A stretch of DNA of 50,204 nucleotides from contig CAIQJJ010000492.1 in assembly GCA_903872065.1 (NCBI GenBank), forward strand, positions 1 to 50,204, in the 5' to 3' direction. The notes under the pieces were generated by a model. The model saw only the letters and a list, made by a program, of their open reading frames with translations, made no database searches and was not told the DNA's origin. A program made the translations under genes and the position numbers. How positions within the stretch are numbered: the stretch's first letter is position 1; the number at the start of each line of letters is the position of its first letter. This document shows, piece by piece, positions 28,530 through 34,452 of the stretch. Source of the stretch: an uncultured Anaerolineales bacterium (GTDB lineage Bacteria > Chloroflexota > Anaerolineae > Anaerolineales > UBA4823).

Positions 28530-29189
28530 TTAATCGGCGGCTTCCGCTTTAGGGCGCATCCGCTCTTTAAGCACTTCAATCACCGCCGGCAGCACCGAAA
28601 CCAAAATAATGGCAATGATGACAATCGAGAAGTTCTGCTCGACAAAAGGCAGGTTGCCAAAGAAATATCCAGCAAAAGAAAATAAGGCAACCCACAAAAT
28701 ACCACCGATCACATTATAAGAAATAAATTTGGCATAAGTCATTGCGCCAACGCCGGCCACGAACGGCGCAAAAGTGCGCACAATCGGCACAAAGCGCGCC
28801 AGGATGATGGTTTTGCCGCCATGCTTCTCATAAAAAGCATGGGTGCGATCGAGATATTCCTTTTTCAAAAAGCGGCTGTTACTGGTAAATGCCTTTGGGC
28901 CAATATAGTGGCCGATCCAGTAGTTAACGGTATCGCCAATGATCGCCGCGATGCTGAGCAAAATGAACAGAAAAACGATATTGAGGGGGCTGCCATCTAT
29001 CGAAGCCAGAGCCCCGGCAGCAAAGATCAGCGAGTCGCCGGGCAAAAATGGGGTAACCACCAGCCCGGTTTCCATAAAGATCACCAGGAACAAGAGAATA
29101 TACGAACCAGCCTGATATTGCTGAATAATTATATTCAGATATTTATCCAGGTGAAGAAATAGATCGATCAAAGAGAGAATCAGATTCAT
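28530..29189 (-). CDS. dedA: DedA family membrane protein
   Basis: [39 protein letters not shown]. Confidence 0.93.
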
Positions 29190-30496
29190 GAAAGTACCTC
29201 AGAAGAAATTTTTGCCTCACCCGCATCATCCACTCCATTGGATGAGATTGTCACAGGCGAGGGAGAAATTGTTGATAAAACCGGCAGCTGGCTCAACCTG
29301 CGCCGTAGGGTAGCATTAAAGCTGAGCAAACCAAAGATCAACAGCACCCCAAAGGCGCTCGCCAGGCCTATCTGAAGCGCTGCCAAAGGTGAAAATTCAG
29401 CCGCTGTGGACGGCTGCAAGGTAAGCAGAGCAGCCGCGACAGTCATCCCATTCCACAAACCGTGGATCAGGACTGCAATCCCATAGACGAACGCTAATCG
29501 GAAATAGCGTTTCTCTGCCCAGGCCGAAGCCAAAGCCCAGCCCATTAAACCGGCGGTGAAAATGTGCATGGCGGCCGTTCCCCAGCGTGCGATGACGATT
29601 GTCGTCCAACTTGCCCCGGCCGCGCTGCCTGCACTCAGGCTTTCTATCAACGACATCCCTGCGCCGCACAACAAACCACTGACAAAACCTTCGGATGAGG
29701 TAAGCCGGCGGCCAGCCAACAACCACACCCCGATGGGTTTAAGCGCTTCCTCAACCAGGGGGACGATCGCTGAGAAGTAAGCCAAGAGCAAATAAATCAC
29801 CATCGGCTGGCGGAGATATGATTCTACCAGAGGAAAGAAAGAAGTGGGGTCCGAAGGAGCAGATTGGATTTTCTGCGCCAGGTCTTGCAGAGCAGCTGCC
29901 TGCTCTGGTTGGAGGACGATTGCCAGACTGCCCAAGATCAGCAGCAGCAAACCGACAAACAATTCTGTTCCCAACATCAACAGCGGCCCAAGCGTCAACC
30001 CACTGGCTAAGATGCCCCAGGCGCGCTGAGGCGCAACCGCTGGCAGCCCATGCCTTCCCAGGTTAACCAACCACAACACAGGAATAGAAATCGCCAGAAC
30101 ATGCGCGGCGGGCAAGATCAGCCATGCCAGCGCAGTGGAACGAATGGCCCAATCGCCAAGCCATAGGGCAAGCGGCAGCGCTATCAACAGCAGCAAGTTC
30201 CCCACCCGCCAGGCAGCGGGCGGCAGCCAGGGTTTGGTTGGCCTCCGCCCAGCCAGGCGCAAAAGGGCATAAACCGCGGATGGACACAGCAGCAGGCCGG
30301 CAAAGAACAGTGTTCCAGCCAGCACAAACTCGCTCATCGTTTGATCGCCGCCCGCCGCCCCGGCCAGGTCGAACATCCCAACCAACAGCAGCAGCCCCGC
30401 CAAGGCAAACGCCCCTAAGGCCGCCGCCAGGCTCAAGATGAACTGAAGCGCCGAGTACAGATCAAAATCCGTTGAACGAGTTTGGGATAGGGACAT
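29186..30496 (-). CDS. PrsW family intramembrane glutamic/metallo-protease
   Basis: PLVEEALKP (EExxK), GMSLIES, AMH and IHGLWN motifs; many TMs. Confidence 0.82.
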
Positions 30497-30497
30497 A

Positions 30498-31805
30498 CTA
30501 CTTTTCAATAATTTCAATGCTCAAAATCGAGTCGCCATCTGGAAGCGTCCCCTCTTGGGATGGATCGCGCGGGGTAATTTGTTCGACCAAGTCCATCCCA
30601 TCAATCACCTCGCCAAAAATGGTGTGTTTTCCATCCAAATGAGTGGCCGCCGCCAGGGTGATGAAAAACTGGCTGCCGTTGGTATTCGGCCCGCTGTTCG
30701 CCATGGCTAATAAGCCGGGCCGGTCAAAGCTTTGCGCGGCGTCAATTTCATCAGAAAAACCATAACCTGGGCCGCCATAGCCTGTGCCGGATGGGTCGCC
30801 GGCCTGCGCCATGAAGCCCGGCAGTACGCGGTGGAAAGTGACGCCATTGTACCAACCATCCCGCGCCAGGTAAACGAAGTTATTGACCGTCAGCGGGGCC
30901 TTGTCGGCATAGAGTTTCAAGGTAACAGCGCCAGTTTTTAGATGGATCACCGCTTCGTACTGTTTTTTTGCATCAATGATCATTGGGGGGCAAGTGCTAA
31001 ACTGCCGCTTTTCAAGCAGCATGAGCTTTACCACCGTTGCAACCACCTCATAGCTTTTGGGCAGATTATCGGGCCAGATTTGGTTGTTGATCACCAAAAA
31101 CGGCGTGCCGGGCAAACCGATATTTTGGCCGTTATCCCAGGCGTCCTGGGCCTTTTTCACCAGTGCATCGCTGGTTAAATCTTTGACAAACTTCTCTTTA
31201 TCCAGTTTCAGCGTTGCAGATTGCGTCTCCAGCCAGGCTTGAAAATCTTCAACCGTCATGGCAGACCAGGTTTGTTGTCCAGCAAAAAGCAGATCGTGCA
31301 TCTGCCAGAACTTGCCCTGCAAACCAGCCGCCTCAGCGGCTTGGGCGGACAAAGCGGCTTTATCGTGGATGCTCATCAATGGGAAATGACGATATACGAA
31401 ACGAACGTCGTTCGGGAAATCTTCAGCGAGACGCGCCATCACGGGCGCGACAGAAGCGCAGCCCGGTCACTGAAAATCGCTGTATTCAATCAACGTAACT
31501 GTCGCCGTTTCTGGGCCAGTGACCCAATCCTGGGCAGTTACGCCGCCAAAAACCGATTCGGGCGTGGGGCCAGTGGTGGGTTTGGCGCTTGAGACAGTAC
31601 AACCTGGCATCACATCGCCAGATTTGATCTCCAGCGTCTTGGTGGGCTGAGGCGGCAGCGTCTTGGCAACAGCCAGTGTAGCCGGCGAAACCTTTTGCGT
31701 CGGCTGCTTTGGCTGTTCCACCTGCGAGGTCGGCATCGGACTGGGCGAAGCCTGTACACAGGCTGCCAGCGCCAATGCAATCAATAGCAAAAACCATTTT
31801 TTCAT
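30498..31805 (-). CDS. Selenocysteine-containing DsbA/thioredoxin-like lipoprotein fused to a cyclophilin PPIase (435 aa; in-frame UGA at 31467-31469)
   Basis: ORFs 31467..31805 and 30498..31442 share one frame, separated only by TGA plus 8 sense codons: EYSDFQ-[TGA]-PGCASVAP-V. Lipobox LAAC; DsbA motifs VYRHFPL and GTPF; cyclophilin motifs FHRVLPGFMAQAGDP and AMANSGPNTNGSQFFIT. Confidence 0.85.
31432..31449 (-). promoter_or_regulatory. Putative bacterial SECIS element
   Basis: mRNA CGCGCC-CGUGAU-GGCGCG begins 18 nt after the UGA; 6-bp GC stem, GU at loop positions 2-3. Confidence 0.55.
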
Positions 31806-31866
31806 GTAGTACCTTCCTTATGAGATATTGCCTCAATTGTACCATCCTGGTACACTGGAGAGCATT

Positions 31867-32961: not shown

Positions 32962-33045
32962 GCCGAAGTGGCGGAATTGGCAGACGCGCACGACTCAAAA
33001 TCGTGTACCCGGAAGGGTATGAGGGTTCGATTCCCTCCTTCGGCA
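32962..33045 (+). tRNA. tRNA-Leu(CAA)
   Basis: GCCGAAG..CTTCGGC-A, anticodon arm CACGA-CT-CAA-AA-TCGTG, long variable arm; TATAAT upstream at 32924. Confidence 0.95.
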
Positions 33046-33168
33046 CAGAGATGGCGGCGGTTGGTTCTCTCCTTTCCTTTTAGTAAGGAGAACAGTGACT
33101 GCCGCTTTTGCGTTTATAATTGGGGGTATCTTTGGCGAGTCTCGATATCCCACAGGAGGTTTCCAATT

Positions 33169-34452
33169 ATGCCATCTACAAACGACATTCTGGCGATCAT
33201 TCTCGGCGGTGGACGAGGAGCCAGGCTCTACCCACTCACGCGCGAACGCGCCAAGCCAGCCGTGCCTATTGCCGGCAAATACCGTTTGATAGACATTCCA
33301 ATCAGCAATTGCATCAATTCAGGCATCAACCGCATTGACGTTATCACCCAGTTTAATTCGGTTTCGCTGCATCGCCACATTGCCCGCAGCTACGTGTTCG
33401 ACGCCTTTCATCCAGGCTGGGTGCAAATCTTGGCGGCTGAACAAACCCCGCGCAGCGAAGATTGGTACCAGGGAACAGCGGATGCCGTGCGCAAACATCT
33501 CATGGATATCAATTCCTCAGGCGCGAAGTATGTCTTGATCCTGGCCGGCGACCATCTCTATCGCATGGATTACTGTAAAATGGCCGAATTCCACTGGGAT
33601 AACCAGGCGGATGTGACCATCGCCGTTCAGCCTGTCTTACATGATCAAACATTCCGCTTCGGGGTGTTGAAACGCGGGGCCGATCAACGCATTACAGATT
33701 TTGTTGAAAAACCGCGCGATCCGGCGGTCCTGGCAAACTTCGTCAGCCGCGATGATCCAGAACGCCCCTACCTGGGCTCAATGGGCATCTATCTGTTCAA
33801 AACCAAAATTTTGATTGATATGCTGGCCGATACAACGGACGACGACTTTGGCAATGATGTGATCCCCAAGGCCATCCACACCCACGAAGTGTATGGCTTT
33901 GATTTCGATGGCTATTGGGAAGATATCGGCACCGTGCGTTCGTTTTATGAGACCAATTTACGCCTGACCAACCCCGATTCCCCGTTTGACTTTCACGATC
34001 CGCAGCGCCCGATTTATACCCATGCCCGCTTCCTGCCCAGTTCGCTGATCAATGGCGGGAAATTGGTCAATGTGATGCTTACTGAAGGCTGCCGGATTGG
34101 CCAATCAGAGATCAGCGACTCGATCATCGGGCTGCGCAGTCAGATCGCTGATGGGGTTACGATTCGCAAAACGATTGTAATGGGCGCGGACTATTACGAT
34201 CCCCCCGATCTGCCGCCGCCAGGGGGCATCGCCCTGGGCATTGGGCCAAACAGTCAGATCAACGGCGCCATCATTGATAAAAATGCACGCATCGGAGCGA
34301 ACGTGGTGATCGAGGCTTTCCCGCGCGGCACTGAGATTGACTGCGACGATTGGGTAGTGCGCGATGGGATTGTGGTGATCCCTAAAAACGCTACCATCGT
34401 CGCCGGCACGATCATCAGTCCCGAAACCACCCCCGGCTGCACCACTGGCTAA
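33169..34452 (+). CDS. glgC: Glucose-1-phosphate adenylyltransferase
   Basis: ILGGGRGARLYPLT..RAKPAVP, WYQGTADAV, ILAGDHLYRMDY, FVEKP, YWEDIGT; SD AGGAGG. Confidence 0.95.
   Translation: MPSTNDILAIILGGGRGARLYPLTRERAKPAVPIAGKYRLIDIPISNCINSGINRIDVITQFNSVSLHRHIARSYVFDAFHPGWVQILAAEQTPRSEDWYQGTADAVRKHLMDINSSGAKYVLILAGDHLYRMDYCKMAEFHWDNQADVTIAVQPVLHDQTFRFGVLKRGADQRITDFVEKPRDPAVLANFVSRDDPERPYLGSMGIYLFKTKILIDMLADTTDDDFGNDVIPKAIHTHEVYGFDFDGYWEDIGTVRSFYETNLRLTNPDSPFDFHDPQRPIYTHARFLPSSLINGGKLVNVMLTEGCRIGQSEISDSIIGLRSQIADGVTIRKTIVMGADYYDPPDLPPPGGIALGIGPNSQINGAIIDKNARIGANVVIEAFPRGTEIDCDDWVVRDGIVVIPKNATIVAGTIISPETTPGCTTG

Follow-up and report, generated by a model that had tools for sequence, protein, structure and literature searches.

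Thioredoxin-fold proteins with a UxxC motif, U being selenocysteine (Sec), make up the commonest class of predicted bacterial selenoproteins. Among the prolyl isomerases, the Gram-positive proteins PrsA and SlrA are membrane-tethered lipoproteins that act on exported proteins and have neither a redox domain nor selenium. Here we describe a gene on the minus strand, at 30498..31805, of a 50,204-nucleotide stretch of DNA from an uncultured Anaerolineales bacterium (contig CAIQJJ010000492.1 of assembly GCA_903872065.1); this whole stretch is called the window below. The gene is complete, with 435 codons, a TAG stop and a single in-frame TGA, as judged from the sequence, its translation, the Pfam domains on either side of the TGA and the orthologues that span residues 1-435. 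We consider it very likely that this TGA is recoded as Sec within an intact gene for a lipoprotein that joins a DsbA-like domain to a cyclophilin.

The nearest described selenoproteins are the DsbA-like (COG2761) and DsbG-like (COG1651) UxxC proteins, which were predicted in 2005-2006 (PMC1088965, PMC1794560) and are listed in a review of 2026 (PMC13188914); DsbA-like selenoproteins have been counted as 45 in 41 organisms (PMC5029168), and other work also contains predictions of selenoproteins that are exported or are lipoproteins (bioRxiv 10.1101/2022.07.06.499078). The window protein resembles the predicted families in having a thioredoxin-fold domain of DsbA type with Sec in place of the first Cys of the CxxC motif (PMC1088965, PMC1794560, PMC13188914), and it shares with them widespread Cys homologues and a small hairpin after the UGA with a G in its apical loop. 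It differs in that those families are described as single-domain, whereas the window protein is tethered as a lipoprotein and fused to a cyclophilin. In the available portions of PMC1088965, PMC1794560 and PMC13188914 neither cyclophilin nor peptidyl-prolyl is mentioned (the supplementary lists, which lie outside this search, may include members of the family), those of the review PMC13188914 make no mention of Chloroflex, Anaerolinea or lipoprotein, and those of the preprint (bioRxiv 10.1101/2022.07.06.499078) do not mention cyclophilin. Literature searches returned no description of a Sec-containing fusion of DsbA and cyclophilin, nor a paper on its Cys form, outside the supplementary selenoprotein lists of PMC5029168, PMC13188914 and PMC1794560, which the searches did not cover and which may hold members.

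Three further sets of relatives place the protein more closely. The NCBIfam family NF041057 (Rcas_1661 family thioredoxin-like (seleno)lipoprotein, from Chloroflexi) matches residues 6-245 of the window protein, from the signal peptide through the linker to the DsbA domain, with positions 2-232 of the 247 in its profile, at 85.3 bits (79.5 on the genome scan) against a cut-off of 190, which makes the window protein a relative of this family and not a member; unlike the window protein, NF041057 proteins are about 247 residues long and have no cyclophilin. The same architecture is found in Anaerolineae proteins named [quoted passage not shown], which are orthologous fusions at 50-61% identity that differ from the window protein in having Cys in place of Sec and in lacking the conserved hairpin. 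Full-length Cys fusions of this kind are abundant in databases under automatic names; the cultured species Bellilinea caldifistulae, Longilinea arvoryzae and Thermanaerothrix daxensis have the Cys form, and the record titles of the best named matches read Anaerolineales, Anaerolineaceae and Chloroflexota. The scan of named genomes started from a peptide pattern with Cys at its end and is biased to Cys forms, so it served for taxonomy and cultured species and not for Sec and Cys counts. By sequence, the closest solved relatives of the redox domain are extracytoplasmic DsbA-type oxidoreductases from monoderm bacteria: 4pwp and 4pwo, deposited as DsbA (E 1.8e-10 for 4pwp), and Bacillus subtilis BdbD, 3eu3 (E 2.5e-9); 4pwp and 3eu3 align with it in the EY/F-SDF-x-C-P-x-C context and in the cis-Pro loop, but all three structures are all-Cys, have no fused isomerase and show low identity to the window protein.

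An earlier account made from the letters of the window, which we call the preliminary description, had remarked that exported Sec lipoproteins are seldom characterised. The gene is less novel than this suggests, since UxxC DsbA-like selenoproteins, NF041057 and the common Cys fusions were already known. A lipoprotein-borne DsbA-like UxxC domain followed by a cyclophilin is a new domain arrangement within a well-known selenoprotein class.

Codon 113 in the window and among orthologues

On the minus strand, the frame opens with the ATG at 31805..31803 and continues to the TAG that ends at 30498, and its only interruption is the TGA at 31469..31467. The sequence and the orthologue column place this codon at residue 113 (U113), the first residue of a U-P-G-C redox motif (31458..31469), and the codons around the site, CAG TGA CCG GGC TGC, spell Q-U-P-G-C. 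Read-through gives a product of 435 amino acids (aa), with no second stop or frameshift across the 435 codons. The translation thus agrees with the preliminary description, which had claimed a continuous frame with one TGA at the first Cys of the thioredoxin motif and a read-through product of this length. Translation with table 11 yields two open reading frames (ORFs) instead, one of 112 aa (31805..31467) and one of 314 aa (31442..30498).

The read-through protein was searched against 61 genomes, the window's own and 60 relatives from the same genus, family or order. Near-full-length matches were found in 49 of the 61 and a fragmented one in another (G027), while in the other 11 the match was to a cyclophilin alone or to a DsbA-like gene alone. 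In the U113 column, the 50 orthologous loci carry TGA in 29 cases, TGC or TGT in 15, and another codon in six (GCG twice, and TCT, GGA, GAC and TCC once each). In every TGA form the aligned region contains a single TGA, which stands in the U113 column and in the context EY[SG]D[FY]Q-U-P-x-C; with the same column occupied by TGA in 29 of 50 loci, the codon is not there by chance. The preliminary description had proposed a comparison of TGA with TGY among homologues, and these counts supply it: an in-frame UGA aligned with the Cys of homologues, as is expected of a selenoprotein.

Contigs from metagenomes bear on the same codon. The preliminary description had named a TGC or TGT in reads at this position as the sign of an assembly error, but in one study's lake-water metagenomes the contigs of three runs (X1, X2 and X3) cover the TGA codon unchanged. 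Record 9 of X2 has 0 differences across the site, and record 12 of X3 covers the codon with neither of its two listed differences falling on it. This check uses contigs and not raw reads; X1 may be the window's own source, and X4 yields only short pieces of relatives, so that the TGA is kept in contigs from other samples through X2 and X3.

To follow the distribution of the two forms, we built a quick maximum-likelihood tree with 59 rows, namely 10 named sequences and all of the 50 loci except the fragment L071; the Sec column and the 14 columns after it had been removed from the alignment. TGA forms cluster on this tree, with 10 changes against a mean of 20.0 after shuffling (0 of 500 shuffles were as low), but they do not make up one clade, as well-supported branches alone force at least three changes. 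With 30 of the 56 inner branches open, the tree was not used to assign an overall direction to Sec/Cys change. In the genus of the window, the tree pairs G001, which has TGA, with G002, which has Cys, as sisters at a support of 100. The amino acids downstream of the codon are unchanged in G002, and the hairpin described below has two mismatches there that come from synonymous changes, a pattern that fits a recent replacement of Sec by Cys.

Some orthologues depart from both forms. In L043 (G024) and L062 (G050) the Sec/Cys position is occupied by Ala, Ser or Thr and a new Cys stands four residues upstream, giving C-D-F-Q-[A/S/T]-x-x-C; the same variant occurs in L074, L083, L085 and L092, which are named records from Anaerolineales or Chloroflexota, and it looks like a relocated nucleophile, as far as the alignment suggests. 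Both redox residues are gone from L066 (G038), L067 (G056) and L070 (G058), which keep a full-length protein with its cyclophilin domain, and two of the three host genomes have no selA. The fragmented orthologue L071 (G027:C4:216007-217271) lies in three pieces, each flagged with a TGA, and may be either a decaying copy or the product of frameshift errors.

A SECIS-like hairpin and the selenium machinery

Downstream of the TGA, at 31431..31450 on the minus strand, lies a hairpin that resembles a selenocysteine insertion sequence (SECIS) and that emerges from comparative pairing, covariation and RNAalifold. A stem of 6 base pairs (bp), all of them G/C (31449..31444 with 31437..31432), closes the loop CGUGAU (31443..31438); the stem starts 19-20 nucleotides (nt) past the U of the UGA, and the hairpin encodes residues 119-125, within helix alpha-1. 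A SECIS is characterized as a small hairpin with a G in its apical loop, downstream of the UGA (PMC1088965), and the window gene has a downstream stem-loop with a small, G-containing apical loop inside its coding region.

We aligned 75 nt around the codon, keeping the 29 TGA forms (alignment A1) apart from the 15 Cys forms (A2). In the TGA forms, this block is almost invariant at the nucleotide level, with a stem of 6-7 bp around a CGUGNU loop in which C36, G37, U38, G39 and U41 are invariant, the third-codon positions C36 and G39 included. Across the helix (columns 29-35/42-48), 96.1% of 203 cells are paired, and both sides have changed at four of the seven pairs, in 19 cells (for example, from G-C to U-A or A-U). 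The covariation score of 0.356, against 0.175 ± 0.019 after shuffling, was reached by 0 of 500 shuffles. When the partner was slid by 1-3 columns as a control, pairing fell to 28-57%, and RNAalifold, with no structure supplied, returned pairs 30-35/42-47, which belong to the same helix. The same columns of the Cys forms are paired in only 44.8% of cells, a value that 201 of 500 shuffles reach. The compensatory changes span codon positions, with a synonymous change in an Ala codon matched four codons on by Ala-to-Glu, Ala-to-Val or Ala-to-Thr, and this implies that the sequence of helix alpha-1 is shaped by the RNA element at residues 119-125.

The same stretch stands out in short metagenome contigs of other organisms (X1 record 5, X2 record 10 and X4 record 17), which match the window only at 31432-31502, with 5 differences each. 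These matches fit the view that no other segment of the gene is as conserved at the nucleotide level as the UGA-hairpin stretch.

The genome holds the machinery for Sec. The preliminary description had proposed a search for selA, selB, selC and selD, and all four were found, each above its cut-off: the tRNA for Sec (anticodon tca) on contig C227 at 70.8 bits, selA on C395 at 541.8 bits, selB on C649 at 324.3 bits and selD on C772 (L019) at 342.8 bits. The selD gene has an in-frame TGA of its own in the N-terminal Gly-rich segment and is itself a predicted selenoprotein gene. Downstream of its UGA we noted a hairpin with a 6-bp G/C stem and the loop CGUGC, about 9 nt farther from the UGA than in the DsbA-cyclophilin gene; the likeness of this loop to CGUGAU, with two genes compared, may be taken as only a hint of a shared element. 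Among the 61 genomes, selA is present in 55, and in 29 of the 29 that have a TGA form. Of the six selA-less genomes, five carry the gene in Cys or degenerate forms only, and the sixth is without an orthologue; since the genomes are related, we treat this co-occurrence as a consistency check and not as a statistic. A global reassignment of TGA was considered and rejected, as TGA is an ordinary stop that closes 16 of the 35 stop-to-stop frames of at least 300 codons in the window.

The hairpin also accounts for the way in which the gene is stored. The codons GTG-ATG at 31437..31442 (minus strand), in the SECIS loop and 3' arm, serve as the false start of the 313/314-aa product in gene calls, as seen in the ORF list (second ORF from GTG 31442) and in the public protein. 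A public protein collection holds the window's product as a fragment of 313 aa (72% of the query covered) because gene callers start inside the SECIS loop. The preliminary description had expected pipelines to call the gene a pseudogene; in this collection, what is stored is a truncated protein. The annotation error is systematic, and many Anaerolineales genomes under-report a conserved envelope protein as a consequence. At the true start, a Shine-Dalgarno-like sequence, AAGGAAGG, was picked out by eye at 31812..31819 on the minus strand, 6 nt 5' of the ATG at 31805..31803.

Protein domains and genomic neighbourhood

All features of the protein are encoded on the minus strand. The N-terminus (residues 1-16, 31758..31805) is a predicted signal peptide ending in L-A-A-C, which we take to be a lipobox, with Cys16 predicted to be lipidated. 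The assignment comes from pattern inspection, which finds the signal peptide and terminal lipobox Cys expected of a bacterial lipoprotein, and from the orthologues, across which lipobox-type endings are seen; C16 is present in 54 of the 59 aligned rows, and the other 5 rows have gaps. Residues 17-63 (31617..31757) make up a tether rich in Pro, Thr and Gln, predicted to be disordered from its composition and from a predicted local distance difference test (pLDDT) below 50 in an AlphaFold2 model.

A DsbA/BdbD-like thioredoxin-fold domain follows at residues 92-247 (31065..31532), with a helical insert and a cis-Pro loop (P235, 31101..31103). It is recognized by Pfam Thioredoxin_4 (PF13462, residues 92-246, E 7e-17) and DSBA (PF01323, residues 104-247, E 3.5e-12), at 62.6 and 46.9 bits against gathering cut-offs of 23.2 and 25.6, as well as by PDB matches and a pLDDT of about 95-98. 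In the model, U113 directly precedes the helix of residues 114-129, so that a CxxC-type motif stands at the start of helix alpha-1 with Sec in its first position. C116 is present in 56 of the 59 rows, and the cis-Pro P235 of the G-T-P loop in 59 of 59.

The C-terminal part is a cyclophilin-type peptidyl-prolyl isomerase domain (residues 288-417, 30555..30944), assigned with Pfam, PDB and Foldseek. Pfam Pro_isomerase (PF00160) scores 154.4 bits against a threshold of 21.7 (E 3.7e-45), cyclophilins in the PDB match this domain by sequence with E down to 5e-38, and Foldseek finds the cyclophilin fold with a probability of 1.00 and target template-modelling (TM) scores of 0.80-0.88 for many cyclophilins, the streptococcal cyclophilin-type PpiB structures 7l6z and 7l6y being among the fold matches. 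No solved two-domain relative is among the 47 Foldseek matches listed, down to rank 50 (query TM 0.30-0.34, about a third of the model), and the rows inspected are of cyclophilin type. R326 is kept in 56 of the 59 rows, F331 in 47, Q334 in 54 and F381 in 57; we presume these to be the cyclophilin catalytic positions from the numbering of human cyclophilin A. The model as a whole, built on an alignment of 61 sequences, has a mean pLDDT of 85.2 and a predicted TM score of 0.73, with both domains mostly above 90. The lipoprotein signal, the DsbA fold with its cis-Pro in G-T-P and the intact cyclophilin domain had all been proposed in the preliminary description, and each is recovered here.

Two further cysteines lie outside both active sites: Cys69 (31598-31600), after the tether, and Cys272 (30989-30991), in the linker between the domains. 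Both are invariant in the 61-protein alignment and are found in 47 of 59 (C69) and 51 of 59 (C272) tree rows, and they may form a structural disulfide that would fasten the linker to the N-terminal segment.

Downstream on the same strand, a gene for a multi-pass membrane protease of the PrsW family (443 aa, 29186..30517; Pfam PF13367, E 3.3e-11) overlaps the stop region of the selenoprotein gene by 20 nt. In 24 of the 30 orthologous loci examined, a PrsW homologue likewise follows on the same strand, and the two genes probably belong to the same operon; the arrangement may reflect a functional pairing of foldase and membrane protease. Only 8 of the 30 loci keep the divergent esterase gene. Farther along the window, a tRNA-Leu(caa) gene (32962-33046, plus strand) overlaps the 5' end of the longest ORF for a glgC-like nucleotidyl transferase (32968-34452, plus strand), whose true start probably lies farther downstream.

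Elsewhere in the genome there are a stand-alone VKOR homologue of 189 aa with a CxxC motif, on contig C871, and a protein of CcdA/DsbD type (DsbD_TM), on contig C446, and DsbB was not found in the assembly, which is 96.8% complete. Two more DsbA-like genes (G000:C24:5613-6278 and G000:C310:1137-1658) have no internal stop and reach 132 and 124 bits against NF041057, below its cut-off; the organism thus has all-Cys paralogues beside the Sec enzyme.

Competing readings and biological meaning

In a draft metagenome-assembled genome, a lone in-frame stop usually points to a pseudogene made by nonsense mutation, or to an assembly or sequencing error for TGC or TGT, and a relative, G027, does have a fragmented copy (L071). 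Yet TGA stands at this codon in a further 28 genomes that belong to several families, which makes an assembly error untenable, and contigs from two further samples keep the TGA; besides this, the 435 codons hold no other stop or frameshift, and both domains score strongly. We regard this explanation as extremely improbable and, given the orthologue TGA column and the further-sample contigs, as effectively refuted. A second explanation keeps the UGA but dispenses with selenium, either by near-cognate insertion of Cys or Trp or by termination, which would leave a lipoprotein stub of 112 aa and perhaps a separate cytoplasmic fragment of 313 aa. It draws on the two ORFs of table 11, on the 313-aa fragment reported by gene callers and on the fact that Sec insertion, expression, export and the activities are all predicted from sequence, a point that also counts against the selenoprotein reading. 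We nonetheless hold it to be very unlikely. A stub together with a fragment that has neither signal peptide nor nucleophile would leave three things unexplained: 29 genomes retain the frame, the lipobox and the motif on either side of the TGA, the hairpin with its compensatory changes follows the TGA only in TGA forms, and TGA forms are confined to genomes with selA. The claim of the preliminary description that this UGA is read as Sec is thus backed by the TGA and TGY orthologues, by a hairpin found only in TGA forms, by the Sec machinery and by the contigs.

Several other observations weigh against recoding as Sec or narrow what it may mean. The genome is a draft of 927 contigs with an estimated contamination of 3.98%, and its Sec machinery lies on contigs other than the window's. 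The single-sequence fold of 76 nt around the TGA gives a different, long minimum-energy structure (z-score -1.22) and is uninformative, so the hairpin rests on comparative evidence; an Rfam scan of 31300-31560 found no SECIS family, its sole match being a chance snoRNA at E 6.6 (Rfam's stock of bacterial SECIS models was left unchecked). A covariance model (R1), built from the hairpin (28 nt) as it occurs in the 29 TGA forms, was searched against the whole genome with 150 of 9190 first-look candidates scored. It recovered the window gene at 35 bits and listed 11 further matches, all at or below 20.7 bits, of which none stands downstream of an in-frame TGA that is flanked by long open frames; among the matches listed from the scored candidates, none is the selD element or another selenoprotein gene, and R1 accordingly defines no lineage-wide SECIS consensus. 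As to function, the oxidase, isomerase or reductase direction cannot be read from sequence, and a selenenylsulfide should have less oxidising power than a disulfide, which speaks against a pure DsbA-like oxidase role. The protein could therefore be a selenoprotein without being an oxidase-type foldase: its U-x-x-C might work as a reductase or isomerase fed by CcdA/DsbD, as a peroxide-reducing centre or as a surface scavenger of metals or metalloids, with the cyclophilin as a substrate-binding module. The presence of a DsbD_TM/CcdA-type protein besides VKOR favours this alternative, as does the lowering of the redox potential of such centres by Sec, and L066, L067 and L070, which keep the remaining protein without a redox motif, suggest that the cyclophilin part is valuable by itself. 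On the other side, the domain, which has the helical insert of the DsbA/BdbD/Thioredoxin_4 class, matches that class and not the ResA/TlpA reductase class, and its nearest solved sequence relatives are of DsbA type. We consider this alternative rather unlikely, though it deserves to be taken seriously, and we give the specific catalytic role as a foldase, combining Sec-based thiol-disulfide chemistry with prolyl isomerisation, about an even chance.

The working that we propose for the gene and its product is as follows. SelB with Sec-tRNA(Sec) would bind the small G/C-rich hairpin with its CGUGNU loop, and UGA113 would be recoded as Sec. The product of 435 aa would be exported by the Sec pathway and lipidated at Cys16, and the disordered tether of about 45 residues would hold it on the outer face of the cytoplasmic membrane. 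There, if the protein is such a foldase, the DsbA/BdbD-like domain would act as a thiol-disulfide oxidoreductase with Sec as the exposed nucleophile of U-P-G-C. The resulting Sec-Cys (selenenylsulfide) centre would outpace a Cys-Cys centre in exchanging with the cysteines of proteins that have just been exported, which would help an organism with little oxidising power in its envelope, and the adjacent cyclophilin would accelerate the prolyl isomerisation that limits the folding of the same substrates. Recycling of the centre would fall to the stand-alone VKOR homologue, which would oxidise it, or to the CcdA/DsbD-type reductant if the protein is an isomerase. The sequence data establish the signature of recoding, the arrangement of domains and their conservation, whereas selenium insertion, export, lipidation and both activities are what we infer from the protein families concerned.

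The set of 29 Sec and 15 Cys forms of one orthologue offers a clean natural experiment in SECIS evolution, in which the hairpin covaries across a protein-coding helix and decays by synonymous changes once TGA turns into TGC. More tentatively, and with the odds leaning against it, a family-level clade of Anaerolineales may depend on selenium for the folding of exported proteins, by way of a tethered, two-step Sec-DsbA-cyclophilin foldase, possibly with the co-transcribed PrsW-type protease as an envelope quality-control module, and with the SECIS hairpin dictating part of the sequence of the active-site helix. If this were true, the repeated Sec-to-Cys reversions and the C-D-F-Q-[A/S/T]-x-x-C variant would record the evolutionary replacement of a catalytic selenol. 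With Sec placed in a lipid-anchored disulfide catalyst outside the cytoplasm that also carries a prolyl isomerase, the protein would provide a testable case for the reasons that anaerobes might have to use selenium in oxidative or isomerising protein folding.

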